Source: Candidatus Babeliales bacterium (GTDB taxonomy: Bacteria > Babelota > Babeliae > Babelales > JANWKD01). From it: DNA of 64,000 nucleotides. Under the pieces are notes generated by a model. The model saw only the letters and a program-made list of their open reading frames with translations, was not told where the DNA came from and made no database searches. Below, one piece after another: positions 21,981-48,051 of this stretch (position 1 is the first letter of the stretch; each line of letters begins with the position of its first letter). The stretch is taken from NCBI GenBank assembly GCA_963762115.1, contig CAVXJH010000003.1, positions 480,001-544,000 on the forward strand, given 5' to 3'. The translations under genes were made by a program, and so were the position numbers.

Positions 21981-22301
21981 GGCCCTATGCGGGCCAGGCA
22001 TCCTCCTACGCTTATCCACGCCTTCCGGCTTGGCAAGCTACGAAGGACAGGCAAACCTTCGCAAAGGTGCTGCAGATCGTTTAACGATTGAGATCCTAGG
22101 GAATATTTATAGATGTTTCATGGTGAAATTTTTATAAATAAGTTAGTCCGGTAGTGCGACGTGCACCTGGAATTTTGATGCTGAAGGCATCAATAATGGA
22201 ATGGTGCATATTCGCGCGGGAGAGACAATCCAACGGAACGTTGGGGCCCTTGTATCAAAGGTATTGGGCAAACAATACCTTTGTGCTGCCCGCATAGGGC
22301 C
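21981..22301. repeat. Modular hairpin repeat (family B) copy 1, MITE-like, with terminal inverted repeats
   Basis: GGCCCTATGCGGG...CCCGCATAGGGCC; largely the reverse complement of 47644-48051. Confidence 0.85.
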
Positions 22302-22328
22302 GAATGATATAAAAATAATAATAACTTA

Positions 22329-22817
22329 TCACGCAAGATCGTCTGTTACAATCTGAATATCATTATTTTGATTAACCGTCAGCACGTCAGCAACTCCATC
22401 ACCATCAATATCACCTGCCGCGGCAATAACAAAACCATCTTTATCAGCCCTTGTCCCCATTAAAGCTGAAGCTGGTGTGGCCAATTTACCGGTAAAATGG
22501 TGCTGACCTTCTTGGCCCTCACTAAAACCATAGGTATAATAAAACCGCTCTTTTTCTCCGCCACCAGAATAACCATCTGGTTTCCATCCTATGCCATTGT
22601 TACCATTTAATATGGTTGCATAGGTTCCATGTTCTGCCCAATGAGCTTTTTGAGCAACATATAAAGAACTAAGGTTCATATACGCTTCTGCACGTTTTGC
22701 TTTTGAAAAAAACCGTAAAAAGCTTGGAATTGATACCATTGAAAGAAATGCAATAATGGCAACAACAATCATTAATTCGATCAGGGTAAAACCCGACCTA
22801 TCCTTACACCTATCCAT
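22329..22817 (-). CDS. Type IV pilin
   Basis: G|FTLIELMIVVAIIAFL class III signal; AKRAEA; C-terminal GDIDGDGVADV. Confidence 0.9.
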   Translation of the reverse strand: MDRCKDRSGFTLIELMIVVAIIAFLSMVSIPSFLRFFSKAKRAEAYMNLSSLYVAQKAHWAEHGTYATILNGNNGIGWKPDGYSGGGEKERFYYTYGFSEGQEGQHHFTGKLATPASALMGTRADKDGFVIAAAGDIDGDGVADVLTVNQNNDIQIVTDDLA

Positions 22818-23174
22818 ATTTCCCCCTAACCCTAATAATCCCTATCCAGGTTAAATCTATCATACAAGCATGAGACCCTCTTTGGTCAAGAGTTACTTAA
22901 AAATAGCTTTTTTCAAACTAAAATTAATCAGTAATTATCGGATTAACATGAACAAAAACCTCACTATTTTTAATCTTTTGTAAATAAAAACAAGGGTTTT
23001 TTGATATATAATTCATAATTTGACTTTTTTAAAAATGCTAATAAAATTAAATAGTGAAGAGCAGAGTTGCTTTAAAAGGCCCAAAAAACCGTTTTTCAGG
23101 TTTAATGGTGAATTTTATCAGCTGGCTTTCTTGAGAGAGGTTTAAAAAATATAGCTATTTATGGAGAAATAAAA

Positions 23175-24599
23175 ATGGCAACACTTAACAAACAAACGAG
23201 TTCAGACAAAAGGTCTGGTCCGTTAGGGTCACAAAAAAATTACAATGAGATAATTGAGCTTCTCGATTCTTCTTGGTCATATACACCTTCAACAGAAAAA
23301 ACAATTGCAACCATGAAGGCTCTTGATCAAGCACTTGATTGCCCATCTAAAAAAATAGATGCAATTTTGGTAAGTGGTACAAATGGTAAAGGTTTAACGA
23401 TCCATTTTGCTACCAAATTATTACAAGAAGAAAAGATTTCATTCGGTGCTTTCTATTCACCTCATATTTTAAGCTACAACGAGCACTTTATCTTAAATAA
23501 TGAAACTATTTCAAACAAAACGTTCACCGAACTTGCTAATGAAGTAATCAATATTGCTCAGTCAAATGAGATTGCCGTAACGTCATACGAAATTCTCACC
23601 ATGATGGCAGTTTTATATTTTGCTCAAAACAATGTTGAAGTTGCTCTTCTTGAAATGAGAGAAGATAGTCCTTTTGATGCAACAGCAATTTGTCATCCAC
23701 AAGTTATTGCCGTTACCAGAATTACTGAAGAAGAATTAACACAAAAAAATGATCTTTCTGCTACCGTAATTAACAACTTACTACAATTAGTAAAACCTGG
23801 TACTCATGTTATTTCAGGTGATCAAAGCAAACTTAATTTACAATTGATGGCTGAAGCAGTCAAAAAAAATAACGGTACTTGGGCTATGCCTATCCGTAAA
23901 TTAGCTGCTCTTAAATATCCGTTTGAACAATTACACGGACGATGTGCCGCAATTGCTGAACGAATTTGTCAGATCTATGTTGATAAATTTGCTAAAGATG
24001 CAACAATTCTTGCAAATAGCTTATTAGCAAAACAAAAAGGTCAACGTGGTAGACCAACCCTAGAAGCAAAACGTGAAACTGAATTAAATCCTAAGAAAAC
24101 ATTAGAACAATTTTGGAAAGAAGAAGCAAGCACCTTGCCTGCACGCTTCCAAATTCTTGATAAAGAAAAACCAAGCATTCTTTTGGATAACGCAAGCAAT
24201 GTTGATGCGTTTACCAACCTTTTACTTGGCATCCGTCTTTTGCATTACCAACGCCCACTTAAAGGTTTAACCTTCATCTTTGGTTGTGATGCTCAGCAAA
24301 TGAACACTGAAGAGTTCTTACGACTCTTACGTTATTTCTCTAAAAAGAACTCAGGACAAATTATTTTCTGTCCTATTGAAGAACATGTTCCTGGCATTAA
24401 CGAAACATCATGGAATGTTGAACAAATAACCAATGATGTAAAAAGTCTCAAAATTAAAGCAAAATCAGCAAAAAGCTTTGAAGAAGCATTTGAGATTGCC
24501 AAAAAATCTGTTGATGAACGACATGGCCTTGTGGTTATTTCCGGTTCAAAAACAATTATTACTCAGTATTGGAAACTTAAGGGAATAAAAAAGATTTAA
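23175..24599 (+). CDS. Divergent FolC/Mur-ligase-like protein
   Basis: VSGTNGKG, FYSPH, PARFQ, LLDNASN, VVISGS; several FolC motifs degenerate. Confidence 0.7.
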   Translation: MATLNKQTSSDKRSGPLGSQKNYNEIIELLDSSWSYTPSTEKTIATMKALDQALDCPSKKIDAILVSGTNGKGLTIHFATKLLQEEKISFGAFYSPHILSYNEHFILNNETISNKTFTELANEVINIAQSNEIAVTSYEILTMMAVLYFAQNNVEVALLEMREDSPFDATAICHPQVIAVTRITEEELTQKNDLSATVINNLLQLVKPGTHVISGDQSKLNLQLMAEAVKKNNGTWAMPIRKLAALKYPFEQLHGRCAAIAERICQIYVDKFAKDATILANSLLAKQKGQRGRPTLEAKRETELNPKKTLEQFWKEEASTLPARFQILDKEKPSILLDNASNVDAFTNLLLGIRLLHYQRPLKGLTFIFGCDAQQMNTEEFLRLLRYFSKKNSGQIIFCPIEEHVPGINETSWNVEQITNDVKSLKIKAKSAKSFEEAFEIAKKSVDERHGLVVISGSKTIITQYWKLKGIKKI

Positions 24600-24602
24600 T
24601 CG

Positions 24603-24869
24603 ATGTATGTACCATCAATTATTATCGGACTCCTTTTAGGTTATAGTTATTGGCTCTCTTTGTTATTCGTAACAAAGAGAGCTTCTTTATGTACACAATC
24701 AAAAGCAAACAACATCATTATCATTACTGCACTAAGTTCCTTTGTGCGAATAGTACTCTTTGCAGGAATTTTTTATTATTTGTTGCGGCAAACAAATCTT
24801 CATCCTATACTAATACTACTTGTGTTTTTAAGCTCATTTTGGCTATTACTCTTGTTAAAGAAAGATTAA
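24603..24869 (+). CDS. atpI: ATP synthase protein I-like membrane protein
   Basis: Small 3-TM protein with SFVR motif immediately upstream of atpB. Confidence 0.55.
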   Translation: MYVPSIIIGLLLGYSYWLSLLFVTKRASLCTQSKANNIIIITALSSFVRIVLFAGIFYYLLRQTNLHPILILLVFLSSFWLLLLLKKD

Positions 24870-24875
24870 ATAGAA

Positions 24876-25622
24876 ATGGAAGGCCTCGAACTTCTTGCTG
24901 TTGAACTATGGAATCCGCTTGGTTATTTTGGCATTGATAATGAGATGCTTAAAATAAATGCTGTAACCCTTATTAATACATGGGCTGTCTTACTAATTTT
25001 ATTAATCAGCATTTTAATAGTACGAATATTTGTAACAAAGAAGAAAACATTATTCCATTTTATAGTAAAATCTGGCATACAATCTTTTATTGATCTGACC
25101 ACACAATCTCTTGGTAGTTTTTCTTATCAACATTTTGCTTTTATCACCGCACTTTTTATTTTTATAGCATATTGCAACCTCATAGCACTCATTCCTTGGC
25201 TTGAAGAGCCAACAAAAGATTTAAATACTGCATTCGCCTTAGGATGCATTTCATTTTTTTATAAAGATTATTATGCCATTAAAGTTCATGGTTTGGGCAG
25301 CTATATTAAAGAATTTTTCCAGCCTTTCTTTCTCACATTCCCCTTAAACGTTGTCGGCCATTTTTCAAAAATTGTTTCTATATCATTCCGACTTTTTGGT
25401 AATATTTTTGGCGGTTCAGTTATTGTACATATTTATAACAATGCAATCGCAGGATCCATTATCTTTGAAACATTGGGTATTATTTCTGGCCTTAATCTTC
25501 TCACCACGCTATTTTTTATTGTTTTTGAAGGTACCATCCAAGCATTTGTTTTCACCATGCTCTCATTAACCTATTTAGCAATTGCTATTCAACCGGAAGA
25601 GTCTGAAGGAGAAATAATCTAA
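24876..25622 (+). CDS. atpB: F0 ATP synthase subunit a
   Basis: PTKDLN, SISFRLFGNIFGG (essential Arg), IQAFVFTML..TY. Confidence 0.93.
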   Translation: MEGLELLAVELWNPLGYFGIDNEMLKINAVTLINTWAVLLILLISILIVRIFVTKKKTLFHFIVKSGIQSFIDLTTQSLGSFSYQHFAFITALFIFIAYCNLIALIPWLEEPTKDLNTAFALGCISFFYKDYYAIKVHGLGSYIKEFFQPFFLTFPLNVVGHFSKIVSISFRLFGNIFGGSVIVHIYNNAIAGSIIFETLGIISGLNLLTTLFFIVFEGTIQAFVFTMLSLTYLAIAIQPEESEGEII

Positions 25623-26587
25623 TGCAAGAATTCGGCGCAGCATTACATGCTCTCAGCATTCTATTTTCTGTTGGTGTCACCTCATTAGGCGTTGGCCTTG
25701 GTGGTGGCATTGCTGCTAGAGGCGCATTACATGCTCTCAACATTGCACCACAAAGTGGTCCTGAAATTTTACGCGCCATTATTATTGGTTTGGCATTAAT
25801 TGAAACAGGTGGCATTCTTGGCGTTGTTATGGGCCTCATCCTTTTACTCGGTCAATCAATGAGTGATCCTTCATTATTGTATATTGGCATCAGCGAATGT
25901 GGCATTGCATTTGCCTTGGGCATTACCGGATGCATGGTTGGCATTTATTCAGCATTGCCAGCACGGCAAGCAGCATTATCAATTGCACGACAACCGTTTT
26001 TTAGTTCAAAAGTTATTAACATTATGCTTTTAACACAATCAATTATTCAAACACCCGTTATTTTTGGCTTTCTCATTTCACTTTTCATCAAAGCACAACT
26101 TATACAAGTACATGATTTTACTCATAGTTTAAAATTGCTGGCAAGCGGTTTATGTTTGGGCATTGGCAGCATCGGCCCTGTTATCGGTCTTGCACGGTTT
26201 GCACAAGTTGCTGTTGAAAGTATTGGTAAAAACCGTGATTCATATGGTAAAGTTATGCCATTCACCTTTATTAGTCAGGCAATTATTGAAACGCCAATCA
26301 TTTTTGCTTTTGTAATTGCTATCATTTTATTAGTTTCACCTGTTGATTTTCATCATATGTCACTGTATGGCATAGGCTTTATAACAGCTGCACTTGCTAT
26401 CGGCATCGGCACCTTTGGCCCTGGTATCAGTTCAGGGAAAATAGCTTCAGCTGCATGCAAAGAAATTGCTGTTGACCCAAAAAATTCTTCATTACTCATG
26501 AAAACAAGTATTCTAGGCCAAGGAATTGTTGATGCAGCAGCAATTTATGCTTTACTCGTTTCTCTCTTGTTACTCTTGTTAAAATAG
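25622..26587 (+). CDS. atpE: F0 ATP synthase subunit c, four fused hairpins (321 aa)
   Basis: Four Gly-rich helix/loop/helix units with LIETG, IIQTP, IIETP, IVDAA; ARQP loop in unit 2; TAATG overlap with atpB. Confidence 0.85.
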   Translation: MQEFGAALHALSILFSVGVTSLGVGLGGGIAARGALHALNIAPQSGPEILRAIIIGLALIETGGILGVVMGLILLLGQSMSDPSLLYIGISECGIAFALGITGCMVGIYSALPARQAALSIARQPFFSSKVINIMLLTQSIIQTPVIFGFLISLFIKAQLIQVHDFTHSLKLLASGLCLGIGSIGPVIGLARFAQVAVESIGKNRDSYGKVMPFTFISQAIIETPIIFAFVIAIILLVSPVDFHHMSLYGIGFITAALAIGIGTFGPGISSGKIASAACKEIAVDPKNSSLLMKTSILGQGIVDAAAIYALLVSLLLLLLK

Positions 26588-26617
26588 AAATAACATTAAT
26601 GCGTTATAGGAAAAAAA

Positions 26618-27079
26618 ATGAATGCACTCATAAGGCCCAAAGTTGGCGTTGGCATCCTGATTATCAAAGATGATAAACTTCTTATGGGAAAAAGAAAAAA
26701 TGCTCACGGGCAAGGTACATGGGCCCCGCCAGGCGGCCATTTAGAATTTAATGAAACACCAGAAGAATGTGCAAAACGAGAAGTTTTAGAAGAAACCGGT
26801 TTACTCATTAAAAATGTTCACCGACTCACCTTCACTAATGATATTTTCTTTGACGAAAGCAAACATTATATTACTTTATATTATATTTCAGAATATTCTT
26901 CAGGCACACCTCACGTGTTAGAACCTGATAAATGCGAATCATGGGAATGGTTTTCACTTTCAAATTTGCCTACTCCTCTTTTTCTTTCATTCGAAAATTT
27001 ACTCAAACAACATGCAATACATTCCTTTGATTATCATGAAATCGCTCAAGCTTGTTATCTAAAAGATATCTCATTTTAA
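26618..27079 (+). CDS. Nudix hydrolase (MutT/NUDT15-like)
   Basis: Nudix box GGHLEFNETPEECAKREVLEETG; EPDKCESWEW. Confidence 0.9.
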   Translation: MNALIRPKVGVGILIIKDDKLLMGKRKNAHGQGTWAPPGGHLEFNETPEECAKREVLEETGLLIKNVHRLTFTNDIFFDESKHYITLYYISEYSSGTPHVLEPDKCESWEWFSLSNLPTPLFLSFENLLKQHAIHSFDYHEIAQACYLKDISF

Positions 27080-27147
27080 CACAAATTTAATGAGCAACAT
27101 TTTTTAAAATAAAAAGTATTGAACTTACAACAAAAACATTAAAACCG

Positions 27148-27328
27148 AAATGTCATTGCGAGGCACATTGTGCCGTGGCAACCCAGATTATAAAATTCTT
27201 TCTTTATTTTTTCTAATTTTAATTTGCTTAAATTTACTGATTCAATAAGCTTTTTATTTTTATGGATTTTATTAATAGAACATTATAATCTGGGTTGCCA
27301 CGGCACAATGTGCCTCGCAATGACATTT
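27148..27328. repeat. Family A inverted-repeat doublet (REPIN-like), no cargo
   Basis: 46-bp perfect arms 27148-27193 / 27283-27328 (AAATGTCATTGCGAGGCACATTGTGCCGTGGCAACCCAGATTATAA) around an AT-rich spacer. Confidence 0.9.
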
Positions 27329-27400
27329 TGGCATATATTGTAATCTCGAAGCAGTGCATTATAATTATTATCTAAAAAACTAGAGAAAAGAGTAAATACA

Positions 27401-28537
27401 ATGGAAAAAAAGGAGCTCCAGGTACTTTATATTATCACCAAATTAGAATTGGGCGGCGCACAAAAAGTATGTTTATCACTGTTTGAAAAACTTCAAAATC
27501 TTGGCAATGCAGCCTATCTTATTTCTGGCAATGAAGGAACTTTAGTCGATCAGGTAAAAAACAAAAATAATGTTCATTTACTGCCTAATTTTAAACGTGA
27601 AATGTCTTTAAAAATAGTTTGGTCAGAACTAAAAAACTTCTTTCAACTCATCTGGCATATTCGTAATCTGCGCAAAGAAAATCCTCGACTTATTGTACAC
27701 ACCCATAGCACAAAAGCAGGCTTAATTGGCCGCTGGGCAGCATTTTTTGCACGAGTGCCAACACGCATACACACCGTGCATGGGTACCATTTTCATGATC
27801 ATCAATCATGGCCATTATGGCTTATTTCTTATCTTCTTGAATTCATTACGAGCTTTATTACGACACATTATGTGTGTGTTTCATCAGCTGACATTAACTA
27901 CGGCATCAAGTTATTACCTTTTTTTAAGAAAAAAAGCTCAATCATCCGCGCAGCCGTTGCTTGGGAACAATTTTATTTGTCTGCCAAAGTCACCACCATA
28001 CAAGATAAAAAACCTTTTGTAATCGGTACGGTTGCTTGCTTCAAAAAACAAAAAAATATTGATGAATTGTTACAAGCTTTTACTCATGCATATCAAAAAA
28101 ATAATTTGCTCAGACTTGAAATCTTAGGTGATGGCATTTTAAGAAACAGTTTTGAAGAATGGATTAATAAGCATAATCTTTCAGCGGTCATAACCCTCCA
28201 TGGTTGGCAAAAAGATGTCAGTTCATTTATGAAAATATGGCACGCTTTTGCTTTAACATCACTCTGGGAAGGATTACCATGCGCTATTATTGAAGCACGC
28301 CTTATGAAATTACCAATTCTTGCTTATAATACTGGCGGCATTCATGATGTTGTTTTTAACAATCAAAATGGCTTTTTATATGCCCAACATGATTGGCAAA
28401 CCATGGCCGATGATATGCTTAAAATAAGCAACAATAAAGAGTTATACAACCGCTTAAGTAATCACCAAGAAGATCTATTAGCGTTTCATGATAACAATAT
28501 GGTTCAAGCACATGTTGCTTTATATGCATCGTATTAA
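27401..28537 (+). CDS. Glycosyltransferase family 4
   Basis: GGAQK, HTHSTKAG, HTVHG, SLWEGLPCAIIEA. Confidence 0.9.
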   Translation: MEKKELQVLYIITKLELGGAQKVCLSLFEKLQNLGNAAYLISGNEGTLVDQVKNKNNVHLLPNFKREMSLKIVWSELKNFFQLIWHIRNLRKENPRLIVHTHSTKAGLIGRWAAFFARVPTRIHTVHGYHFHDHQSWPLWLISYLLEFITSFITTHYVCVSSADINYGIKLLPFFKKKSSIIRAAVAWEQFYLSAKVTTIQDKKPFVIGTVACFKKQKNIDELLQAFTHAYQKNNLLRLEILGDGILRNSFEEWINKHNLSAVITLHGWQKDVSSFMKIWHAFALTSLWEGLPCAIIEARLMKLPILAYNTGGIHDVVFNNQNGFLYAQHDWQTMADDMLKISNNKELYNRLSNHQEDLLAFHDNNMVQAHVALYASY

Positions 28538-28600
28538 CACTAATTCAATATAAAAAATTTAAAAACTTAATAATCAAAAATAACTACCAATACATCGAAT

Positions 28601-28781
28601 TGTCATTGCGAGGCACATTGTGCCGTGGCAACCCAGATTATAATGTTTTAATAAATAAGAGTTCATAAAAAAAACTAAAAAATTATTAGATGAACAAATC
28701 TTTTTTAATTAAATTATAAGGGAAAATGATAGAATTTTATAGGCTGGGTTGCCACGGCAACAATGTTGCCTCGCAATGACA
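28601..28781. repeat. Family A inverted-repeat doublet (REPIN-like), no cargo
   Basis: TGTCATTGCGAGGCACATTGTGCCGTGGCAACCCAG...CTGGGTTGCCACGGCAACAATGTTGCCTCGCAATGACA. Confidence 0.9.
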
Positions 28782-28843
28782 TTCCTAGTTATTTTATTCA
28801 TCATAAACTCGTTTTGTTTATCAAGCATAGTAACTTTGGCCAA

Positions 28844-29629
28844 CTAATATTGGCCCAATTTGCCACGTTTTTTTGCAATTTTTTCACAATACATAAAAAG
28901 CAAAAGACCGCCCATAAAATATAATCCAGAATTCATTAACAATGAAAACAATTGACCATTTTTTACCAACATCGTTAATGACTTTGATTCAAACAATACT
29001 GCACGCAAGACAATGATGCCTTCTGCTGTTGGTAACGTGTGAGCAATTTTCTGAATCCAAACAGGCAACTGTTCAATAGGAAGCATTGAACCACTCAAAT
29101 AAAACAAAAGATTATCAATAAGATCAATTAACCCAGCCACATTTTTATACAGTAAAGCCATACCTGCTATACACAAGCCAAAACCGATAAGGCCAACAAG
29201 AATAATAAGCAAAACAGGAATTGCAGCAATATGTAAGGGAATATGGATAGAACATACGTACATAATAATAACACTCATTGCCGCAATCATCATTGTTGAA
29301 GAAACAATTGTTGAAATGCTTGCCCCTATAAAAATTAATGCCGGATGAACGGGGCTCATATACATTTGCTCAAGAGTCCCACTCCGCCCTTCAAGCGTTA
29401 AAATAAGACTTACTTTTAAAATATAGGATGAATATACCCAAACAATATAACCAATTAAAGACGGGCCAAATTCTTCAAGATTAGTATTACCATAATTCAT
29501 GAGTAATGCCGTTCCCAAAAAATAAATGCCCAAGGTAATGAGTTCACTAATGACATTAAATTTATAATGCCACGTTACCAATAACCCTTTTCGAATCTCA
29601 TTAAGAATAACTAAAAATGCCGTCTTCAT
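28844..29629 (-). CDS. ABC-2 type exporter permease
   Basis: EGRSGTLEQ, LSGSMLPIEQLP; six TM. Confidence 0.85.
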   Translation of the reverse strand: MKTAFLVILNEIRKGLLVTWHYKFNVISELITLGIYFLGTALLMNYGNTNLEEFGPSLIGYIVWVYSSYILKVSLILTLEGRSGTLEQMYMSPVHPALIFIGASISTIVSSTMMIAAMSVIIMYVCSIHIPLHIAAIPVLLIILVGLIGFGLCIAGMALLYKNVAGLIDLIDNLLFYLSGSMLPIEQLPVWIQKIAHTLPTAEGIIVLRAVLFESKSLTMLVKNGQLFSLLMNSGLYFMGGLLLFMYCEKIAKKRGKLGQY

Positions 29630-29633
29630 ACTA

Positions 29634-30575: not shown

Positions 30576-30872
30576 ATTTCCCCCTACAGGTTAAAAAAAT
30601 GAAAATACTTAAGGCATATAATCATTAAGTATATAACCACCCTTAGTATGCTTTGTTCATGATAGATAAAACAATAGTAATGACATCTGCATTGTAATGA
30701 TTAAGTAAACTACTCTACATAAGCTTTCTAAAAACAAGAATTGGTTAAGAATTTTTAGATATTTATTAATAAAACATTGTCAGAGTATAACAAAAAAAAG
30801 TTTTATCGCTAGCAATACTCTCTTTATTAAACAAAATTTTAAAAATAATGCAAAAAATAATAAAAATAATGC

Positions 30873-33674: not shown

Positions 33675-33715
33675 TGTCATTGCGAGCGCATGCGTGGCAA
33701 CCCAGTCTATAAAAT
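33675..33715 (+). repeat. Family A solo arm
   Basis: TGTCATTGCGAG-CGCATGCG-TGGCAACCCAGTCTATAAAAT; no partner arm seen. Confidence 0.8.
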
Positions 33716-33888
33716 AAATTCCATATATTATTGATACCATTTCCACATCTTTGTTTTTAGTATTTTTTAATATTATACGGCCCTATGCGGGCAGCACAAA
33801 GGTATTGCGTGCCCAATACCTTTGATACAAGGGCCTCCCCCTTCGCTTATCCACGCCTTCCGGCTTGGCAAGCTTGTATGTTAAATCA

Positions 33889-34092
33889 AAATGATTTTAA
33901 AGCTAAATTTTGTTAATTTATGATCAGTTGTTTTGAAATTAATTGTTTGAGAAGCTGATAGATCTCGTGTCAAGCTTGGTCTCAAAGGACCGTGTCATAG
34001 TTTGAGACTATCAGCTTATACAAAAATGACCTCGAACAATCACTAGAGACGTATCAAGTACATACGATCTCGCATGTCTACAAGCCAGAGGT
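33889..34092 (+). ncRNA. Predicted IS110 bridge RNA (target- and donor-binding loops)
   Basis: Stem 33952-33966/34004-34017 encloses TGTCAAGCT and CATAG (target guides); stem 34029-34033/34088-34092 encloses ACAATCACT and TACAAG (donor guides); 5' end inferred from junction promoter. Confidence 0.85.
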
Positions 34093-34096
34093 ATTT

Positions 34097-35038
34097 ATGA
34101 AAAATATATCAAAAGTATTTATAGGTGTCGATATTTCAAAAAACACTTTAGATGTTTATATCCATCCAATAGGAAAATCTTTAAAAGTATCAAACTCAGA
34201 AGTTGGAATAACGGAGATCATTAAAGAATTAGTTAAATATGATATCGAACAAATTGCATGCGAAGCAACTGGTGGGTATGAAAAATTACTTGCTCGAATA
34301 TTAAAAAAAAATTGTTATTATCTTTGGATCATCGATCCAAGAAGAATAAAAGGCTATATTGTTGCTAGTGGCTGCAAAAGCAAAACGGATAAAATTGATG
34401 CTCGAAAAATTGCTGAATTTGCTTCTAAAAATTCTCCTGATTATGAGATAATGAACAAAAGCGAAAATCAAGAAAAATTACAAGCTTTGGTCAATCGTAA
34501 AAATGACTTGGTAAAATTTTTAGTTGCCGAAAAAACAAGATCTAAACATCCATCTCATGCATTATATGCATCAAGTATAAAGAAATTTATCAAAATCTTA
34601 GAGTGCGAAATCAAATCAATTGATTTAAAGATACAAGATTTAATTCAGCAAGATGAAAAATTAAATACAAAATCAAAAATTTTGGAGTCAATTCCAGGAA
34701 TAGGCAAAACTTCAGCTGCAACATTATTATCATTCGTTCCTGAACTTGGTCAAATAAGTAATAAAAAAGTATCAGCACTCATTGGTGTTTGTCCTTATGA
34801 GAATGAAAGTGGAAGTTATAAGGGTAAAAAATTCATCAGAGGTGGAAGAACTATTCCAAGAAATATGCTTTATATGTGTGCATTAACAACTATTAAATAT
34901 CATCTCCCATTAAAGGAACTTTACGATCGTTTAATAACTTCTAAAAAACCTTTTAAAATAGCTATCGTAGCTATTATGCATAAACTTATTGTGATTGCTA
35001 ATTCTTTACTAAAAAAAGGTGAATTATGTAAAGCTTAA
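34097..35038 (+). CDS. IS110-family DEDD recombinase/transposase
   Basis: GVDISK, CEATGGY, KTDKIDA (DEDD), SIPGIG, NESG (catalytic Ser position), GGR. Confidence 0.95.
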   Translation: MKNISKVFIGVDISKNTLDVYIHPIGKSLKVSNSEVGITEIIKELVKYDIEQIACEATGGYEKLLARILKKNCYYLWIIDPRRIKGYIVASGCKSKTDKIDARKIAEFASKNSPDYEIMNKSENQEKLQALVNRKNDLVKFLVAEKTRSKHPSHALYASSIKKFIKILECEIKSIDLKIQDLIQQDEKLNTKSKILESIPGIGKTSAATLLSFVPELGQISNKKVSALIGVCPYENESGSYKGKKFIRGGRTIPRNMLYMCALTTIKYHLPLKELYDRLITSKKPFKIAIVAIMHKLIVIANSLLKKGELCKA

Positions 35039-35249
35039 TATTGTTTAGCTTTATTAAAAAATATTTGACTTTTAACACAATCACTATGGCGGACAGGCCA
35101 ACCCTTCGAAGCGTTAGCGTAGTAGGGCCGCGCGAAAACGTGAATTCTAAATCTTGATGCAGAATGCATCAAGATTTAGAATTCACATCGCCACTACCGG
35201 ACTAACCTATATTTATAAATTTTCTTTAGAATTTCATTTATTTGGGCAA

Positions 35250-35306: not shown

Positions 35307-35450
35307 TTATTTATTTTTGCTGCCAAAATAATAAACTACCGGGGCTACAACAGCAGCCGTAACAACCATAGCTCCTGCAATAATTTTTTTTGAATGTGTT
35401 TGGCAAAAGGTTTGATGAGAAATAGCAGCATCATATCCCTCCTTATGACC
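35307..35450 (-). pseudogene. 3' remnant of a gene with C-terminal TM anchor
   Basis: Reads GHKEGYDAAISHQTFCQTHSKKIIAGAMVVTAAVVAPVVYYFGSKNK*, followed by a terminator; 5' part replaced by the tnpA relic. Confidence 0.5.
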
Positions 35451-35452
35451 AG

Positions 35453-35590
35453 ATCAAAGGAAAAAGTGCTATTAAAGTTGCACGGCAATTTGAGGTAAAA
35501 CTAAAAACTTTAATGGCAAACGATTTTTGGGCTAGAGGTTATGTCATTTCGACCGTTGATTTTAAAATTGGGCAAATATACAATTTCTAA
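35453..35590 (+). pseudogene. IS200 tnpA C-terminal fragment
   Basis: Reads IKGKSAIKVARQF...FWARGYVISTV; no start or HUH motif. Confidence 0.75.
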
Positions 35591-38352: not shown

Positions 38353-38448
38353 ATTATAGAACCTATCTGAAAACTCAGGGCAGTTAAAAAAATAAAAATC
38401 TCTTTCTTGAGTTGAGCTTTATTATAAGCAACATTATACTAAAATATT

Positions 38449-38835
38449 ATGAATCTCTACCAAGCCCTCTTAATGGACCATTATCAAAACCCCCGCAACT
38501 ATGGAACCCTCGAAAACCCTGACTTCAGTTCAGGAGAACATAACCCTTCTTGTGGCGATATAATCACTATTCAAGGAAACATCGAAAACGATCGCCTCAC
38601 AAAAATATGTTTCACCGCACAAGGATGCGTCATTAGCGTTGCATCAGCATCACTCCTTACTGAATATGCCCACCAAAAAACCTTAGAAACCATCACCGCA
38701 ATTACCCCCCAACAGATGCAAGAAATTATAGGTATCACCTTAGGGCCTCTACGCATCAAATGCGCACTTCTTTCCCTTATCGCTTTACAAAAAGGCATTC
38801 AAAATTACACCCAAACTCATCTCAAAGGCTCCTAA
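38449..38835 (+). CDS. sufU: SufU/IscU-type Fe-S assembly protein
   Basis: DHYQNPRNYG, NPSCGD, GCVISVASAS, RIKCA. Confidence 0.88.
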   Translation: MNLYQALLMDHYQNPRNYGTLENPDFSSGEHNPSCGDIITIQGNIENDRLTKICFTAQGCVISVASASLLTEYAHQKTLETITAITPQQMQEIIGITLGPLRIKCALLSLIALQKGIQNYTQTHLKGS

Positions 38836-39962: not shown

Positions 39963-40059
39963 ATACTTACGCATCACCTCATGTATTATCATTGCTTTTT
40001 TACGGTGCTTGCTATAGAATTGGGTAAAAAATAATTTCATTCATATTGTAATAAGCAAA

Positions 40060-41031: not shown

Positions 41032-41062
41032 TATTAATAACAATTTTGACGGGGAATTTATC

Positions 41063-42034
41063 ATGAGTAAGGGATGGTTTTATTTATCGGGAATTATATT
41101 TTTAATTACCAGTTCATTAAACGCAATGGATGTCAGTAAAAAAGCAATGATTAAAATAATCATAGATGGAAAAGAATCTTTAGTACCGCTCATTGATACA
41201 ATTCAAGAATATGCTGTTGATACACAACAAATACAAAAAAAATCATCGAGTTTATTAAGATCAACCTTTAATTTTATTTGTAGTCATCCAAAAGAAACAT
41301 TAGAGTTTTTTGGATGTGCCACAATTATTGGTGGAATAATTTTTTTTGCAAAAAATAAACATGATAAAGAATTTGCAAAACATAAAACTAAAATTTTTCG
41401 AATAAGACAAAAACATAATGAATTAAAAACTACTATACAACAACAATCTCAAGCACACATTTCGAAATTATTGAATGTTGCTTCAATACTAGTAACAGAA
41501 TTATGTGAGGATATAAAAGCTGATAATACACAATCTCTTTTAGAGATTGATCAAATAACTAAAGAAATCGAAGAACGTAATACAATATTGCATAAATTTC
41601 AAAAAAAACATTTTGCTAATGTTGATCAAGCAATAGAACAATTAGACCAACACGAAAAAGAACATCTTGCAAAAGTTATTTTTGAGGCTAGAAAACGCCT
41701 TGAAGGATCGTTTAATTCATTTAACAGCGAATTTGATACATTCGGAAATCATTTAAGTCACAACAGAGAAAAATTAAGAACACAAATCAATGAACAGTCA
41801 CAGCAAAATGCCAATCTTACTCAATATTGCGCAGCTCGAACGCAATCAAAAATTAGATCTATAACGCCTGTGCTTGAAGAAGCAGAAGAACTATCAAGAA
41901 ATTTTCAAGATTTATTAGATAATGATACATATGAACTACTAACTGAAGAAGCACTTAATGAAACACTTGAGCTAGCAAATTCTGGACAACAAATATTAAA
42001 CGAACTTGAAAGACTTTTAGATTCAAAAGATTAA
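41063..42034 (+). CDS. Secreted coiled-coil protein with one TM
   Basis: ATG 41063 with GGGG SD; signal peptide ...SLNA-MD. Confidence 0.7.
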   Translation: MSKGWFYLSGIIFLITSSLNAMDVSKKAMIKIIIDGKESLVPLIDTIQEYAVDTQQIQKKSSSLLRSTFNFICSHPKETLEFFGCATIIGGIIFFAKNKHDKEFAKHKTKIFRIRQKHNELKTTIQQQSQAHISKLLNVASILVTELCEDIKADNTQSLLEIDQITKEIEERNTILHKFQKKHFANVDQAIEQLDQHEKEHLAKVIFEARKRLEGSFNSFNSEFDTFGNHLSHNREKLRTQINEQSQQNANLTQYCAARTQSKIRSITPVLEEAEELSRNFQDLLDNDTYELLTEEALNETLELANSGQQILNELERLLDSKD

Positions 42035-42062
42035 CGTTAACATTTCTTTATAATCACTATTA

Positions 42063-42086
42063 AGGGAGATCAAAAATGATCTCTCT
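42063..42086 (+). terminator. Terminator hairpin
   Basis: AGGGAGATCA-AAAA-TGATCTCTCT then T-run. Confidence 0.65.
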
Positions 42087-42115
42087 ATTTTTTAAATTCA
42101 AAACACAAGGCTTCC

Positions 42116-45001
42116 ATGAAAAAACATAGTATGCTCTTCACCATTTTATTCACCATCGCAAGTTCATTACCCCTATATTCAATGGAAATGAGTGTTAATG
42201 AAATAAAGAAAAACATCCAAACTCGTATAGCTAAAGGCGATGATGATCTTGATATGCCTGATACCGTTGGCGTTATACCTTTAATTTTTGCAGCACAACA
42301 AAATGATGCTGATCTTACTCATGAACTTGTTGCATTTCGTGCCACTGTTGATGTTCAAGATATGCAAGGATCAACGCCATTGTTATGGGCAATACGTAAG
42401 GGTAATGTTACTCTTGCACACCATTTAATTGATTATGGTGCACGTGGTGATATTCAAGATAAAAGTGGCAATACACCCTATTCACTTGCTTGTGATTATT
42501 CTCTCAGTGATATTGTAAACCGTATTAAACCCGAAAAAACAACTCCAGAAAAGGGTAAAGAAATAGAAGAATCTTTAGAGCAACCTCAAACAACCGGAAA
42601 ACAAAAAGAATATAAGAAAAAATCCCAAAAAGCTTTCACGGTATTATGTCTTACAAATGCTCGTAAAAACAGTGTGGAAACTCAAAAAAAATTATTGACA
42701 ATGTTCACTGAAGAAAAAGCCCAGTTAAAATCTTCAGCAAAAAAATCATCAACAGCACAAGATGATTGGTATCAATTATTCACGGCAGTTTCTGAAAATA
42801 ATCTTGAAAAGGTAACACGCCTCCTTGAAGATAAAAATACTGATATCAATGCACAAACACCATCAGATTGGACAGCACTTACCCGTGCTTGTGATCAACT
42901 CAATGTTGAAATGGTAGAAAAATTAATTGAACACAATTCTATCATTGTTGATCTTCCCCTTAAAAGAGGTACCACTCCTTTAATGATTGTAGCATCAAAA
43001 GTTGCACCCGCTTCACAAGATGATAAAACCGGAAAAAACGCTTTTAAGATTGTAAAATTATTGCTTGAACATGGTGCTCATATTGATGCCCAAGATAATG
43101 ATGGCGCAACCGCATTAATCAAGTCTCTTATGAGTGGCAACATTAAAACTGCCAAGCTTCTCATTAAGCTTGGAGCTGATACAACAATAAAAGATAAACA
43201 TGGGTTTAATGCTCTTTTTTATGCTGCAGGAAAAGGACATCTACCTATTGTTGAAAAATTAATCAAACGTGGCACACCTGTTGATGCAACAACAAAACAA
43301 TGGAATCCTGTTACTCAGACAATTTCAGAAAGTCATTATGAAATTGCACAATTGTTACAAGCAGAAGCAGCAAAATTATTAGATGAAGTAGAAGAATCTC
43401 TTAAAAATCAAGAAACAGAACAAACGGTTTCTAAAAAAAATAATAATCAAAACAATGTAAGCCTTTGGGAACGATTCAAAAAAAGTATTACAGATTCAAC
43501 AAAACCGGTAACAAAAGATTTTCTCTTTGCGAAAGATCAAAAAAACTTAAAAAAATGGTTAAAAAAGACTACATCAAAATTAAGATACATTCATGCTCAT
43601 GATATGCAAAATGCAATAGAAATAGGCAATGCATTATTATCTAGAAGTTATGAACAAACAAATGAATGGTATTGGGTGACCATTGGGATTTATGAAAAAA
43701 TTTGTAATGATCATATTGAAATAATACGTATCTTGACTCAATGGTTATGTGCAAAAAATAGAGGCCTTCCAATGACACCCTTGCACATCGCCATAATGAA
43801 AGGTTCAACAAGAGTAGCTCAATGGTTAATTGAAACAAGCAAAGACATTGAATCGGATTCTTATTATGATGGATCCACACCTTTACTATTAGCAATACAA
43901 AAAAACGAATCTAAAATTGTTCAATTATTAATCGAAGCCAGTGTTGATTTAAACAAAAGTAATAATGATGGAATAACACCATTAATGACAACAATTGCAA
44001 ACAAGCAACCAGAAATTGCACGATTATTAATCGAAGCTGGAGTTGATGTAAATAAAGAACAAGATAATAATCTCTCTTTATTAATGTTAGCAATTGCACA
44101 TAAACAAACAGAAATTGTTCAATTATTAATTAAAGCCTGTGCTGACGTTAATAAAAGTTGTAATGGAATGCAACCATTAACACTAGCAATAAGCAATAAT
44201 GAACCAGAAATTACTCAATTGCTCATACAAACTGGTGCAGATATTGATAAAGAGGATAATAATGGACTTACACCATTATTATTGGCAATACTAAAGAATC
44301 AACCAGAAATTGCTCGATTATTAATTGAAGCTGGTGCCGATGTAAATAAACCTGATAATGATGATTGCACACCATTAATAAGTGCAATTGTAAATAACCA
44401 ATTAGAGATTGCTCAATTATTAATTAAAGCCAGGGCAAATGTTAACGTTAATCTTCCCGATAGAACAGGAATTGCCCACAAAAGCTTAAGTCTCTTAGAA
44501 TATATAGCTAAGCAACCAAAATTACTAGAAATTTTTTCCTGTATTCTTGTTCATAATGCTGACCTGAGTGAAGCAACAAAACTAAAAATGCGAGTATGGG
44601 CAATTGAGGAAAACAATCAAAAAGCAATTGAAACATTAGACGCTTTTAATATTGATTATGATCTTGGTGGTTTTTATAAAATTTCTAAAGATGATCAACA
44701 AAACAAACAAACTGCCAATAATCCAAGAAGGACGATTGTTCATGCCATTGAAAAATCAACAGGGAAACCGACTGATTTAATAGAATTAATTGAAGTACTT
44801 GATAAATACAATATGCTTAATCAAGAAGCTATGGAAGATATTGAAGAAGCAGCCAATCAAAAAGCATCCATAGCAGCAAACCAAAGGGCATTTTTATTAT
44901 CCAGGGTACGTGATAATTTAACCCGTTTAAATACTATGCAAGAACATATACATCAACTGCAGCAGTCTAAACAAAATCCACCTTCTAAAGGAGATAAATA
45001 G
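42116..45001 (+). CDS. Secreted ankyrin-repeat protein (961 aa), paralog of 35706
   Basis: MKKH...IASSLPLYS-ME N-terminus like 35706; three ankyrin blocks in the same arrangement. Confidence 0.9.
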   Translation: MKKHSMLFTILFTIASSLPLYSMEMSVNEIKKNIQTRIAKGDDDLDMPDTVGVIPLIFAAQQNDADLTHELVAFRATVDVQDMQGSTPLLWAIRKGNVTLAHHLIDYGARGDIQDKSGNTPYSLACDYSLSDIVNRIKPEKTTPEKGKEIEESLEQPQTTGKQKEYKKKSQKAFTVLCLTNARKNSVETQKKLLTMFTEEKAQLKSSAKKSSTAQDDWYQLFTAVSENNLEKVTRLLEDKNTDINAQTPSDWTALTRACDQLNVEMVEKLIEHNSIIVDLPLKRGTTPLMIVASKVAPASQDDKTGKNAFKIVKLLLEHGAHIDAQDNDGATALIKSLMSGNIKTAKLLIKLGADTTIKDKHGFNALFYAAGKGHLPIVEKLIKRGTPVDATTKQWNPVTQTISESHYEIAQLLQAEAAKLLDEVEESLKNQETEQTVSKKNNNQNNVSLWERFKKSITDSTKPVTKDFLFAKDQKNLKKWLKKTTSKLRYIHAHDMQNAIEIGNALLSRSYEQTNEWYWVTIGIYEKICNDHIEIIRILTQWLCAKNRGLPMTPLHIAIMKGSTRVAQWLIETSKDIESDSYYDGSTPLLLAIQKNESKIVQLLIEASVDLNKSNNDGITPLMTTIANKQPEIARLLIEAGVDVNKEQDNNLSLLMLAIAHKQTEIVQLLIKACADVNKSCNGMQPLTLAISNNEPEITQLLIQTGADIDKEDNNGLTPLLLAILKNQPEIARLLIEAGADVNKPDNDDCTPLISAIVNNQLEIAQLLIKARANVNVNLPDRTGIAHKSLSLLEYIAKQPKLLEIFSCILVHNADLSEATKLKMRVWAIEENNQKAIETLDAFNIDYDLGGFYKISKDDQQNKQTANNPRRTIVHAIEKSTGKPTDLIELIEVLDKYNMLNQEAMEDIEEAANQKASIAANQRAFLLSRVRDNLTRLNTMQEHIHQLQQSKQNPPSKGDK

Positions 45002-45044
45002 TTCCAAACAACTTTGATAAATTTCCAGGACATTAAAATTATTT

Positions 45045-45086
45045 AAGACGAGAGAGATCAATCATTTTTTTGATCTCCCTCGTCTT
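45045..45086 (+). terminator. Terminator hairpin
   Basis: AAGACGAGAGAGATCA...TGATCTCCCTCGTCTT-TTT. Confidence 0.7.
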
Positions 45087-45183
45087 TTTAGTATTGTCAT
45101 ATCAACTATAACCTTGCGCTTTATTCCCCCGTTATGTTTGTCTCATAAATGAATATCATCATTGTTAGTAATAAGGCTTTAAT

Positions 45184-45705
45184 ATGTTAAAAACAATAAT
45201 TTTTCGTACAATATTAGCAATTCATTCAGCGCTTGTATTTCACGAACTGAATGCTGTATGTCCCGTTTGTACTCTTGCCGTGGGAGCAGGAGTAAGTCTA
45301 TCAAAATGGTTAGGCATTGATGACACTATTACAGGCTTATGGATTGGCGCATTAACAGCATCAATGATAGCTTGGACCGTTACTCTTTTATCACGCTATA
45401 ACATTCGCTTTTATGGTAGAAAAATTTTAGTAACAACAAGCTACTTTGCTCTTACCCTTTGGCCCTTATATCACAAACATTTAATTGGCAATCCTTTAAA
45501 CACCTTATGGGGATTCGATAAACTTTTATTAGGCATAGTTATGGGTGTCATACTCTTTACTATAAGCTGCCTTTGGTATTATTACCTCAAATTAAAAAAC
45601 AAAGGGCATGCTTATTTTCCTTTCCAAAAAATTGCTATGCCTATCGGGTTTCTTTGTGTTGGCAGTATTATTTTTTACCTTATTGTGAGATGTAATGGAA
45701 AATAA
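45184..45705 (+). CDS. Membrane protein with CPVC motif
   Basis: Signal-like N-terminus, AVCPVCT, GIDD, FPFQK; about five TM. Confidence 0.7.
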   Translation: MLKTIIFRTILAIHSALVFHELNAVCPVCTLAVGAGVSLSKWLGIDDTITGLWIGALTASMIAWTVTLLSRYNIRFYGRKILVTTSYFALTLWPLYHKHLIGNPLNTLWGFDKLLLGIVMGVILFTISCLWYYYLKLKNKGHAYFPFQKIAMPIGFLCVGSIIFYLIVRCNGK

Positions 45706-46282
45706 AATTAAAGATTTAAATGAGTTAATTGCAAAAGTAGATCAGATGAAAAAAAAAGATAAAATGGATCTTTCATCTGATCAAGATCTCAGCATTGCCA
45801 TTATGAACCTCATCAGCATAGAAGAACATCTTTTCTTTTCCGGCGCAAAAACAGGCAAATCTGCCTATTACGATTTAATCTATGAAGTTCGCAACATGCG
45901 TAAGGAACTGTTAAAAAAAATGATTAAAGAGTATGAAGGCGAAGTTTGGTGTATATCAAAACATCTTTTGGCATCCTCAATGCGCCTCATGGAAGTAGGC
46001 ACAAAACAACTTGATATGGGCAATAAAAAAGAAGCCTATGATCTTTTTGGAAAAGCTTATGATCTTTATGCCCTTTTTTGGGGTCTTAATATGCAACTCA
46101 TTACTTCTGAAACCGTTAAAAAACATGCTATCGATCCAATTAATAACACTGCTGCCAATAATGATCCCCTTAAGAATGACCCCAATAACAATAGTTCATT
46201 GCATAACTCTGAAGAGAAAAAAGGGGTTATGAGATTGCTCGGAAAATTGGTAAAAATGGCGATTGATTGTTGTCTTGAATAA
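45695..46282 (+). CDS. Hypothetical helical protein with EEH / WCISKH / DCCLE motifs
   Basis: Overlaps previous gene by 11 bp; clustered His/Cys/Glu. Confidence 0.7.
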   Translation: MENKIKDLNELIAKVDQMKKKDKMDLSSDQDLSIAIMNLISIEEHLFFSGAKTGKSAYYDLIYEVRNMRKELLKKMIKEYEGEVWCISKHLLASSMRLMEVGTKQLDMGNKKEAYDLFGKAYDLYALFWGLNMQLITSETVKKHAIDPINNTAANNDPLKNDPNNNSSLHNSEEKKGVMRLLGKLVKMAIDCCLE

Positions 46283-46403
46283 TGTATATAGTATGTTTTA
46301 CTTAATCATGCAATAAATACCTATCTTGCACAGACGCCATTAAAGTAACCCAATTTTAATATTGATCATTGTATGATACTATAAAAGCATAAGAAAGGCT
46401 TTT

Positions 46404-47612
46404 ATGGATCACTTACGCAAAGATTTTCCCATTTTCTCATCATCGCCACAGCCGTTTATTTATTTTGATAATGCTGCAACAACTCAGAAACCTGAATCGG
46501 TTATTGAAGCAATGAGCAATTTCTACCGCACAGACTATGCCACCGTGAATCGCAGTATGTATGCACGAGCAGAAAAAGCTACCGAAAAATATGAAGCCGT
46601 GCGAGCACAAGTAGCTTCTTTTATTGGTGCAGAACCATCAGAAATTGTTTTCACCAAAGGGGCAACTGAAAGCATTAATATGGTTGCAACTGCATGGGGT
46701 AGAGAAAATATAAAAACAGGCGATGAAATTGTACTCAGTGAGCTGGAACATCATGCCAACTTATTGCCTTGGCAACAGATTGCACAAAAAACGGGGGCAA
46801 TGCTGAAATTTATTCCCATAACTTCAGATGGCACTTTAGCTTTAGACAAACTTACCGAAATTATAACGCCAAAAACCAAATTAGTGAGCATTATTCATGT
46901 CTCCAATGCTCTAGGAACTCATAATGACTTAGAACCCATTATAAAAGCTGCTCATAAAGTCGGCGCTCGAGTTCTTGTTGATGCAGCACAATCAATTGCC
47001 CATCAAAAAATTAATGTAAGCCTAATGAATCCCGATTTCTTAGTGTTTTCAGGGCACAAAATGCTTGGCCCAACCGGCGTTGGTGTTCTCTATATAAAAA
47101 AAATAATACAACCTGAGATGCCTCCTGCACAGTTTGGAGGCAGTATGGTTTTCCAAGCAACCTACACCGATGCTCAATGGTTACCAGCGCCAGCTTGTTA
47201 TGAAGCAGGAACTCCTCCCATTGCTGAAGTTATTGGCCTTGGAGCAGCATTAGAGTATTATATCAAAAACATTGATTTTACAGCGTTAAAAGCTCATGAA
47301 ACGGCATTAACCGCTCATACTATTGCTGGGCTAGAAAAATTCCCGGAAATACGAATTTTGGGCCCTATAAAGCAACTTAAAGAAATGGGTCATATGGTAA
47401 GTTTCACCGTTGAAGGGTATCACCCTCATGATATTGGCGCCTACCTTGATGCGAAGGGCATTGCGGTGCGGACTGGTCATTATTGTGCTCAGCCACTTGC
47501 TCAACGATTGGGAATTACTGGTTCAATTAGGGTCAGTTTTTCTTGTTATAATACGATTGAAGAAGTTGATTATTTCCTTGAAATAATGAGAAAATTGTTG
47601 GGTAAGTCTTAA
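46404..47612 (+). CDS. sufS: Cysteine desulfurase
   Basis: YFDNAATTQKP, EHHAN, SGHKMLGPTG (PLP Lys), RTGHYCA. Confidence 0.93.
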   Translation: MDHLRKDFPIFSSSPQPFIYFDNAATTQKPESVIEAMSNFYRTDYATVNRSMYARAEKATEKYEAVRAQVASFIGAEPSEIVFTKGATESINMVATAWGRENIKTGDEIVLSELEHHANLLPWQQIAQKTGAMLKFIPITSDGTLALDKLTEIITPKTKLVSIIHVSNALGTHNDLEPIIKAAHKVGARVLVDAAQSIAHQKINVSLMNPDFLVFSGHKMLGPTGVGVLYIKKIIQPEMPPAQFGGSMVFQATYTDAQWLPAPACYEAGTPPIAEVIGLGAALEYYIKNIDFTALKAHETALTAHTIAGLEKFPEIRILGPIKQLKEMGHMVSFTVEGYHPHDIGAYLDAKGIAVRTGHYCAQPLAQRLGITGSIRVSFSCYNTIEEVDYFLEIMRKLLGKS

Positions 47613-47643
47613 AATTTTATAAACATAAATTTTATTATCTCTC

Positions 47644-48051
47644 GGCCCTATGCGGGCAGCACAAAGGTATTGCGTGCCTCCGCCTACGCTTATCCAGGCC
47701 TTCAGGCTTGGCAAGCTTCGTCGGACAGGCAATATACCTTTGATACAAGGGCATCCGCCTTCGCCAAGGCTTCGGCGGACAGGCCAACCCTTCGAAGCGT
47801 TAGCGTAGTAGGGCCGCGCGAATATACACCACTCACTCATTGATGCCTTCAGCATCAAAATTCCAGGTGCACGTCGCACTACCGGACTAACTTATTTATA
47901 AAAATTTCGCCATGCAACATCTATAAATATTCCGTTGAGCAAGACTGTTAGACGATCTGCAACATCTTTGCGAAGGTTTTCCTGTCCTTCGTAGCTTGCC
48001 AAGCCGGAAGGCGTGGATAAGCGTAGGAGGATGCCTAGCCGGCACGAGGCT
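47644..48051. repeat. Family B repeat copy 3, with extra nested palindromic modules
   Basis: Reverse complement of 21981-22301 with added CC(G)CCT(A/T)CGC...GGACAGG modules; far TIR degenerate. Confidence 0.88.

Follow-up and report, generated by a model that had tools for sequence, protein, structure and literature searches.

Why does one copy of a dispersed palindrome harbor an IS110 element while other copies stand empty in the same stretch of DNA? The stretch, hereafter the window, comprises 64,000 nucleotides from a Candidatus Babeliales bacterium (assembly GCA_963762115.1, contig CAVXJH010000003.1, positions 480,001 to 544,000), for which a sequence-only reading had proposed that the element targets this host repeat as a safe haven and that its right guide may explain the choice of site. 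In our assessment, a predicted bridge RNA very probably steers insertion into palindromes that combine a long loop with the ATG allele. Legible in the DNA itself are the element ends, the CT core, four predicted guide segments matching either the donor junction or the target, and a three-base split between filled and empty sites (Table 1).

Table 1. Features of the occupied locus and of the empty palindromes, in window coordinates
Feature	Position	Strand	Basis or remark
Empty long-loop palindrome, ACG allele	22002..22051	+	
Occupied long-loop palindrome, left part	33837..33874	+	includes left target 33866-33872 and core
IS110 element, 1,211 bp with one CT core counted (35084-35085)	33875..35085	+	5 genome copies
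Predicted bridge RNA, target-binding loop	33952..34017	+	consensus fold, 15 homologs, compensatory pairs
Left target guide TGTCAAG-CT	33968..33976	+	6/7 identity to left target TGGCAAG, 4 sites
Right target guide TGTCATAG (reads CT-ATG-R-Y-R) and handshake bases TT	33993..34002	+	pairing at sites
Left donor guide ACAATCA-CT	34036..34044	+	identical to right end of element, 35077-35085
Right donor guide (CTACAAG) and handshake bases CC	34076..34086	+	complements core and left end (CT-TGTA)
IS110 DEDD recombinase, intact, 313 aa	34097..35038	+	PF01548 and PF02371 matches
Predicted -35 box TTGACT	35065..35070	+	sequence inspection
Occupied palindrome, right part, ATG allele	35086..35097	+	
Empty long-loop palindrome, TCG allele	47680..47729	+	
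Empty short-loop palindrome, TCG allele	47755..47783	+	
Empty long-loop palindrome, ACG allele	47981..48030	-	

First, what is the element? Its five genome copies are either identical within the element or one base apart, and the second copy of its CT core lies at 33873-33874. The ends are fixed because three empty paralogs of an IS481-like gene, which equal the joined flanks of the C6 copy once the element is removed, show the flank without it; the same comparison, with the core at both junctions, shows insertion to be scarless. The recombinase scores 190 bits against NF033542 (cut-off 140) and matches the IS621 structure 8wt6 with E = 1e-32, and its residues D12, E56, D98, D101, and S238, whose catalytic roles are assigned from the alignment and family knowledge, are invariant in A1. 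Membership in the IS1111 group was rejected, as the predicted guide RNA sits in the 222-bp left end and the right end spans just 47 bp. Judged by sequence, the element likely belongs with the RNA-guided "bridge" recombinases already known, as a new relative in the IS621-type IS110 group. Seventeen bases separate TTGACT from TATGTT (33877-33882) across the predicted end-to-end circle junction, a layout like that in which IS621 forms its promoter (PMC11208160, available text); no circle junction was seen in low-depth DNA contigs of five of the six sequencing runs listed, none of which is an RNA run. No second IS110 or free bridge RNA that might act in trans was found in the genome (blastn with the element; PF02371; assembly 95% complete), and viral contigs hold no relative.

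Second, does occupancy follow the sequence of the palindrome? The five modules of the window lie, to within about three bases, where they had first been read, and TGGCAAGCT occurs in four of them, at 22031, 33866, 47709, and 47993 (minus strand); as also read before, the three empty copies continue with ACG or TCG and the occupied one with ATG. An extra TGGCAAGCT at 50059, in no module, continues with TAA, and the short-loop palindrome shares its downstream 49 bp with the filled site. The 20-base loop motif has no match in 50 shuffles of the window with up to four mismatches allowed, and Rfam has none within the window itself. Taken alone, the window is underpowered for occupancy (one filled vs. 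three empty long-loop copies, Fisher p = 0.25). Genome-wide, every long-loop module with ATG is filled (4/4) and none of the 12 with other alleles is (p = 0.00055); among the 13 palindromes with the same left target, the counts are 4/4 and 0/9 (Fisher p = 1/715, about 0.001). Occupancy thus tracks the bases after the core, as had been anticipated, and the copies do not lie mostly outside the repeat: four of the five reside in it, all in long-loop modules, the exception being one inside an IS481-like gene. The earlier interpretation is upheld in part. That the right guide explains which copies are used is borne out by this allele split and by guide–target covariation in homologs; ATG, however, is needed yet insufficient, given three empty ATG relatives here, short-loop or partial, whose left target is poor, and the ATG found in 21 of 58 empty arms in G164, whose IS has an ATG-reading guide. 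The genome has no long-loop ATG copy left unoccupied; no orthologous empty site was found in G001 and G004, where synteny breaks past the upstream HAD gene, and no clean empty allele of the locus was seen in the low-depth contigs of the five runs. The palindrome sites are intergenic, and an abundant target alone would yield the same picture as a safe haven.

Third, the predicted RNA in the left end offers a means of reading this allele. It is predicted to fold into two internal loops, target-binding and donor-binding, with a fold conserved in 15 homologs, and two-sided changes affect 10 of its 34 consensus pairs, a number that none of 500 shuffles reaches. The guide CATAG is indeed present, at 33996-34000, and the right target guide pairs with six bases beyond the core at all five sites, two G-U wobbles included. 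At the fifth site, the left target guide matches at one of seven positions, plus one wobble. At 24 of the 25 sites, the first handshake base complements position 7 of the target, with C-G, G-C, and U-A all represented, though the sites are not independent.

Comparison with relatives extends this correspondence. Homologous proteins number 276; the guide table was drawn from homologs of at least 55% identity, with the duplicate L050 set aside; full flanks are absent in 4 of its 26 rows, a bulge is possible in the registers of L051 and L075, and L056, with a rearranged junction, enters the covariation test and stays out of the hairpin correlation test. The scan of genome contigs turned up only G058 once more, and the phylum-level search gave the same result as the order-level one. 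In a set of 15 distinct bridge RNAs, 42 of the 45 bases at right-guide positions 1-3 agree with the target, a level reached in 0/100,000 permutations; when only the same repeat family is considered, the match is exact in 7/8 (p = 0.0024). One base at these positions is missed in three of the 15 elements, one of which has a rearranged junction. The left guide matches less completely (59/91, p = 2e-5), and over 22 natural sites the matches per position are 9, 14, 10, 16, 14, 18, and 21 for the left guide and 21, 20, 21, 14, and 18 for the right. Readers of ATG, ACG, TCG, and CAG replace one another several times on the tree, with the occupied site following, and guides of one type lie dispersed over the recombinase tree (TCG, five changes in five rows; ATG, three in four; ACG, two in two). 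The left donor guide likewise changes along with the donor in L052/L055. The G220 element has a TCG-reading guide and a TCG site, yet ATG stands in 22 of the best 37 of 46 empty arms there. Among the 22 complete sites of the clade, seven have a left-guide match of at most 3/7. Natural insertions with left-guide pairs at just one to three of seven positions are an oddity; a perfect hairpin precedes one of them.

How, then, was the fifth, off-repeat site reached? It bears a perfect 8-bp inverted repeat whose end falls one base short of the core, and ranks second among 74 right-guide-compatible non-module sites at all five window sizes (z = -3.9); a stem-loop containing the left target is present at all five sites in the genome. 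It is conceivable that the recombinase first finds an extruded hairpin or cruciform, which the right guide and handshake base then check, left-guide pairing being largely dispensable in this clade. In keeping with this, the three copies of the element in G164 occupy three different loops with left matches of 3, 5, and 1 of 7, and a target stem-loop raises the activity of ISPpu10 in the available text of its preprint (bioRxiv 10.64898/2026.03.19.712850). However, the hairpin was spotted post hoc at a single site, the short-loop ATG hairpins of the genome are empty, left guides covary with their targets, and left-guide match does not correlate with pairing around the core in homologs (rho -0.03, n = 21, p = 0.89; counted per element, rho -0.37, n = 12, p = 0.23); nor, in that same text, can the ISPpu10 stem-loop replace lost pairing. 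We regard such structure-led recognition as unlikely. Just as doubtful is the proposal that pairing by the left guide can be replaced, in this Babeliales clade, by a hairpin in the target, leaving G-CT, a stem-loop spanning the left target, and five or six pairs with the right guide as the only requirements of a site. If true, this substitution would let the element reach many palindrome loop variants and chance hairpins, one-base changes of the right guide would retune it between repeat alleles, and the departure from the IS621 and ISPpu10 results would bear on off-target prediction for bridge recombinases. Because the 5′ arm of the hairpin resembles the usual left target, the fifth site might be read as having a left target that is looped out; 18 of the 74 control sites do equally well, and the resemblance was dismissed as chance.

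Alternatively, the element may have inserted into ACG copies whose mismatched base was then changed to the letter of the guide, making ATG the result and not the cause. Outside this genome, few long-loop copies have ATG (4/94 in 60 other genomes vs. 4/13 here, p = 0.002-0.007, related genomes not being independent; 0/11 in the same genus), yet it occurs in every filled copy here, and the empty paralog at C3:69,060 carries ACG in the same downstream context as the filled C6:169k site. This order of events nevertheless seems to us quite improbable. ATG must be part of the target, because it is native in the three empty IS481-like paralogs, and the fifth site thus had it beforehand; it is also common in empty arms of the wider family (25/42 in G087; 21/58 in G164, despite the ATG-reading guide of its IS; plus three here). 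Guide–target mismatches persist at the filled sites L014, L051, and L077, and in the IS621 structures, as given in the available text, the right target remains paired with the guide and cleavage occurs at the core (PMC11208158). Scarcely credible is an absence of targeting, through wide landing with only harmless copies surviving or block-copying of one filled module: each of the five insertions lies in a harmless place, be it an intergenic repeat or another IS, but four of the five copies sit at the same base of modules that, 16 in number, make up ~0.05% of the genome, both arms vary among the four filled modules, and base-exact register and the matching, covarying guides refute it in the main.

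Returning to guidance by the bridge RNA, a sequence of steps can be sketched by analogy with IS621. The element would excise as a circle whose joined ends create a promoter; at the CT core, the RNA–recombinase complex would open both the donor and the target; and strand exchange would follow, with a handshake pair formed at target position 7. Strict filtering of sites would fall to the right guide, ACG and TCG copies staying empty because of an A-C mismatch or two mismatches with it, respectively. The left guide would be lax far from the core, yet here would prefer long-loop over short-loop ATG copies, and relatives may gain other alleles or repeat families through changes of guide bases. Weighing against this account are the scant left-guide pairing at the fifth site and at seven of the 22 clade sites, the higher share of ATG among long-loop copies here than in other genomes, the lack of an unfilled long-loop ATG copy, and the three elements with a missed right-guide base.

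Much of this logic, a REP-like target read by a strict right guide and a lax left guide, is already published for IS621 and ISPpu10. IS621 of E. coli shares the DEDD and serine recombinase, the CT core, a left-end bridge RNA with target and donor loops, the junction-promoter layout, a handshake base at target position 7, a REP-type target, and one standing left-guide mismatch (PMC11208160, PMC11208158, PMC13626964). It is a distant protein (117 bits, ~300 aa) from a different phylum with an unrelated repeat, and the natural sites seen here tolerate far more left-guide mismatch than its screen suggests in the available text of the same papers. For ISPpu10 of Pseudomonas putida, the available preprint text describes a REP target, a strict right guide, a left guide lax save beside the core, and a stem-loop including the left target, the same guide asymmetry as in the per-position matches of our 22 sites (bioRxiv 10.64898/2026.03.19.712850). 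According to that text, its stem-loop does not rescue lost pairing and its right guide is hardly reprogrammable, whereas here a site with 1/7 left matches is used and natural right guides have switched repeatedly. A literature search whose coverage excluded most subscription journals found no paper on Dependentiae and IS110 together.

The nature of the repeat itself deserves comment. Enterobacterial and Pseudomonas REPs are GTAG-tagged and associated with RAYTs. The palindrome resembles them in being a dispersed, intergenic, imperfect palindrome found in composite repeats and targeted by an IS, and differs in having no Rfam match in the window and in its ties to tRNA 3′ ends, which it often follows (13/30 loci), and to small stand-alone GIY-YIG ORFs, which related arms flank at four loci. 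Although dispersed as first described, it may, given these links, be a mobile repeat itself. The genome has five intact Y1 transposases resembling IS200-type TnpA; the one inspected has no flanking module. On bacterial palindromes tied to GIY-YIG or tRNA genes, nothing relevant appeared among the literature matches listed.

Finally, the locus offers a clean natural example, from a phylum seldom studied, of the rules known for bridge RNAs: one base separates filled from empty sites within one genome, and close homologs display right guides reprogrammed in nature. Guide asymmetry could readily be tested on the element and its homologs, and the recombinase is a compact candidate.

The IS110 element targets a dispersed palindrome, as a sequence-only reading had proposed: of its five copies in the genome under study (G000), four occupy the identical base of the long-loop module. 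Within the element, these copies show at most one base of difference, and no further IS110 was found in that genome. An IS481-like transposase gene (a family label assigned by eye from the translation) is broken by the fifth. Because three empty paralogs of this gene read straight across an uninterrupted G-CT-ATG, the element can be delimited to 33875–35085 with a CT core, and the ATG belongs to the target DNA, not the element. The ORF at 34097–35038 is an IS110 recombinase with IS621 and ISCro4 as its closest solved structures and a 70% identical homolog, P0030, named Dependentiae/Babeliales, which makes this lineage the likely host. All five modules claimed for the window are present, displaced by at most about 3 bases, and TGGCAAGCT lies at 22031, 33866, 47709 and 47993 (minus strand), followed by ACG, the IS, TCG and ACG, respectively. 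The loop motif, absent from all 50 shuffled windows, is present in 61 of the 261 genomes of the order (a phylum-level search gives the identical 261, as fits Babeliales with a phylum of one order), in which the reversed motif used as a control has 0 matches. The module stems show paired changes between genomes, and the module is therefore a real structured repeat family.

The predicted bridge RNA lies at the left end of the element, which folds (z = -3.2) into two stems with internal loops that would hold the four guides (table). Across 15 homologs, two-sided changes occur at 10 of 34 pairs, a count attained by none of 500 shuffles, and the paired share drops from 96% to 29–40% in slid controls; the fold was derived from the alignment used for its test, which biases the comparison in its favour. 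Were the ends joined, a predicted -35 box at 35065 would stand 17 bases from a -10-like hexamer, the same junction-promoter layout that excerpts of PMC11208160 describe for IS621; neither circle nor RNA of the element was seen in the sequencing runs and low-depth contigs, among which no RNA run is listed. Judged from its sequence, with the testable IS110-group features found, the system probably works like IS621 and ISPpu10; a literature search yielded nothing on IS110 elements of Dependentiae among the papers covered.

The right target could be read for 15 distinct bridge RNAs of homologs, drawn from nine genomes and six metagenome contigs, and at right-guide positions 1–3, 42 of 45 bases match the occupied site. 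Eight elements use the repeat family targeted by the G000 element, seven of them with an exact right-guide match to ATG, ACG or TCG (p = 0.0024). These guide types are unclustered on the recombinase tree (good support for 8 of its 19 inner branches), and the guide–target match therefore does not stem from shared descent alone. In one relative, G220, a TCG-reading guide fills a TCG site, the commonest empty allele being ATG (22 of 37 among those listed). Other repeats are targeted by further relatives: the repeat used by one G001 element has 34 empty copies, that of the second G001 element 8, and that of the G232 element 3. Sequencing run X3 holds a sister element in a long-loop module, where a one-base change at 33997 makes the guide read ACG; on its right-end contig, 3 of the 13 bases past the core differ, but the depth there is below 5, and this is only a hint of an ACG-reading guide in a matching site. 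In G087 (locus L056), the right flank of the IS110 repeats a stretch about 70 bases upstream of the left junction and mismatches its own right guide, likely an IS-linked rearrangement; in G114 (L051), the first 19 bases of the left end are tandemly duplicated.

Over 22 complete sites, Watson–Crick matches number 9, 14, 10, 16, 14, 18 and 21 at left positions 1–7 and 21, 20, 21, 14 and 18 at right positions 1–5; wobble pairs account for most of the gaps at position 4. At 24 of 25 sites, the handshake base is complementary to target position 7, the same relation as in IS621 according to excerpts of PMC11208158. For ISPpu10, excerpts of an experimental study report that the right guide is strict and the left one lax, and that the target has a stem-loop (bioRxiv 10.64898/2026.03.19.712850). 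Left-guide matching falls to 3 of 7 or fewer at 7 of the 22 sites, two of which could adopt a bulged register. The IS481-like site, with a left match of 1 of 7, lies directly behind a perfect 8-bp inverted repeat, its hairpin strength ranking second among 74 compatible sites, which suggests that target structure can replace left-guide pairing; however, this is a single site with a hairpin found post hoc, there is no correlation across homologs, and the excerpted ISPpu10 study saw no such rescue.

Genome-wide lists of modules and IS copies in G000 bear out, in part, the proposal that the right guide explains site choice. All four filled long-loop modules carry ATG after the core, and none of the 12 empty ones does (n = 16; p = 0.00055); three of these 12 differ also beside the core, and among the 13 modules with an identical left target, 4 of 4 with ATG are filled versus 0 of 9 others (p = 1/715). 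ATG is nevertheless insufficient for occupancy: three short-loop or partial relatives (C3:206,280; C6:239,340; C6:about 308,530) are empty despite it, and both guides therefore shape site choice in G000. Conversion on insertion is an unlikely source of ATG in the filled modules, because the fifth site has ATG natively, empty arms elsewhere commonly carry it, and other guide–target mismatches persist at filled sites. Local spread of the ATG allele, then saturation, would better fit its excess (4 of 13 long-loop copies in G000 versus 4 of 94 in 60 other genomes). About 90 bases beyond the filled C6:169k site, a stretch on the opposite strand (C6:170,500–170,650) resembles the terminal part of a tRNA-like gene, which may be tmRNA; ARAGORN made no call there.

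Guides, mobile elements and repeats, with their locations
Feature	Location	Remark
Left target guide	33968–76	predicted, loop of left-end fold
Right target guide	33993–34000	predicted, loop of left-end fold
Left donor guide		predicted, loop of left-end fold; identical to the element's right end
Right donor guide		predicted, loop of left-end fold
IS481-like element	G000 C5:85,127–86,319; C3:347.5–348.9k; C3:197.5–198.8k; C6:253–256k	four copies, one inactivated by IS110
IS200-type Y1 transposase	window 18655–19125 and four other places	five copies, terminal hairpins
Decayed Y1 transposase fragment	35450–35560	shortly downstream of the window IS110
Composite repeats	window 33779–35206, 47644–47891, 21981–22210	interchangeable hairpin cassettes; paralogous composites hold the module, short or long, at differing slots
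Array of module right arms	G164 C19:8,513–9,110	tandem, 69-bp period
Small stand-alone GIY-YIG ORFs	G000 C5:10,664–11,113 (-), C5:155,858 (-), C5:148,358 (-); loci L025, L026, L037, L039	preceded by tRNA 3' end and/or arms of the target-module palindrome family
Second GIY-YIG type	window 53000–53206 (G000 C3:533,000), C3:558,505	long inverted repeats of the GTCATTGCGAG type on both flanks

Finally, 14 of the 16 modules lie outside ORFs of at least 100 aa, which cover 80–88% of the contigs, and the other two lie within such ORFs, which run across repeats or a tRNA, a distribution consistent with a putative safe haven that would spare genes. In relatives, 13 of 30 loci have the module beginning no more than about 45 bases from a tRNA 3' end, 4 loci have a small GIY-YIG ORF, and GIY-YIG ORFs in G000 are also flanked by related arms. 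The long-loop module often directly follows a tRNA CCA end (L017, L018, L027, L028, L032–L035, L039), to which its right arm, ending in TGG, could pair back. The GTCATTGCGAG-type repeat has many copies lacking a GIY-YIG ORF (e.g., window 33676–33715) and is targeted by one G001 IS110. The small stand-alone GIY-YIG ORFs are candidates for the enzyme spreading the module repeat; a literature search found no description of such repeat-linked ORFs among the papers listed. Both the targeting and the right-guide role put forward by the sequence-only reading stand, amended by the insufficiency of ATG and by the possible mobility of the repeat, which, from its association with tRNA 3' ends and GIY-YIG ORFs, may be a passenger that itself moves and not a signal of the host.
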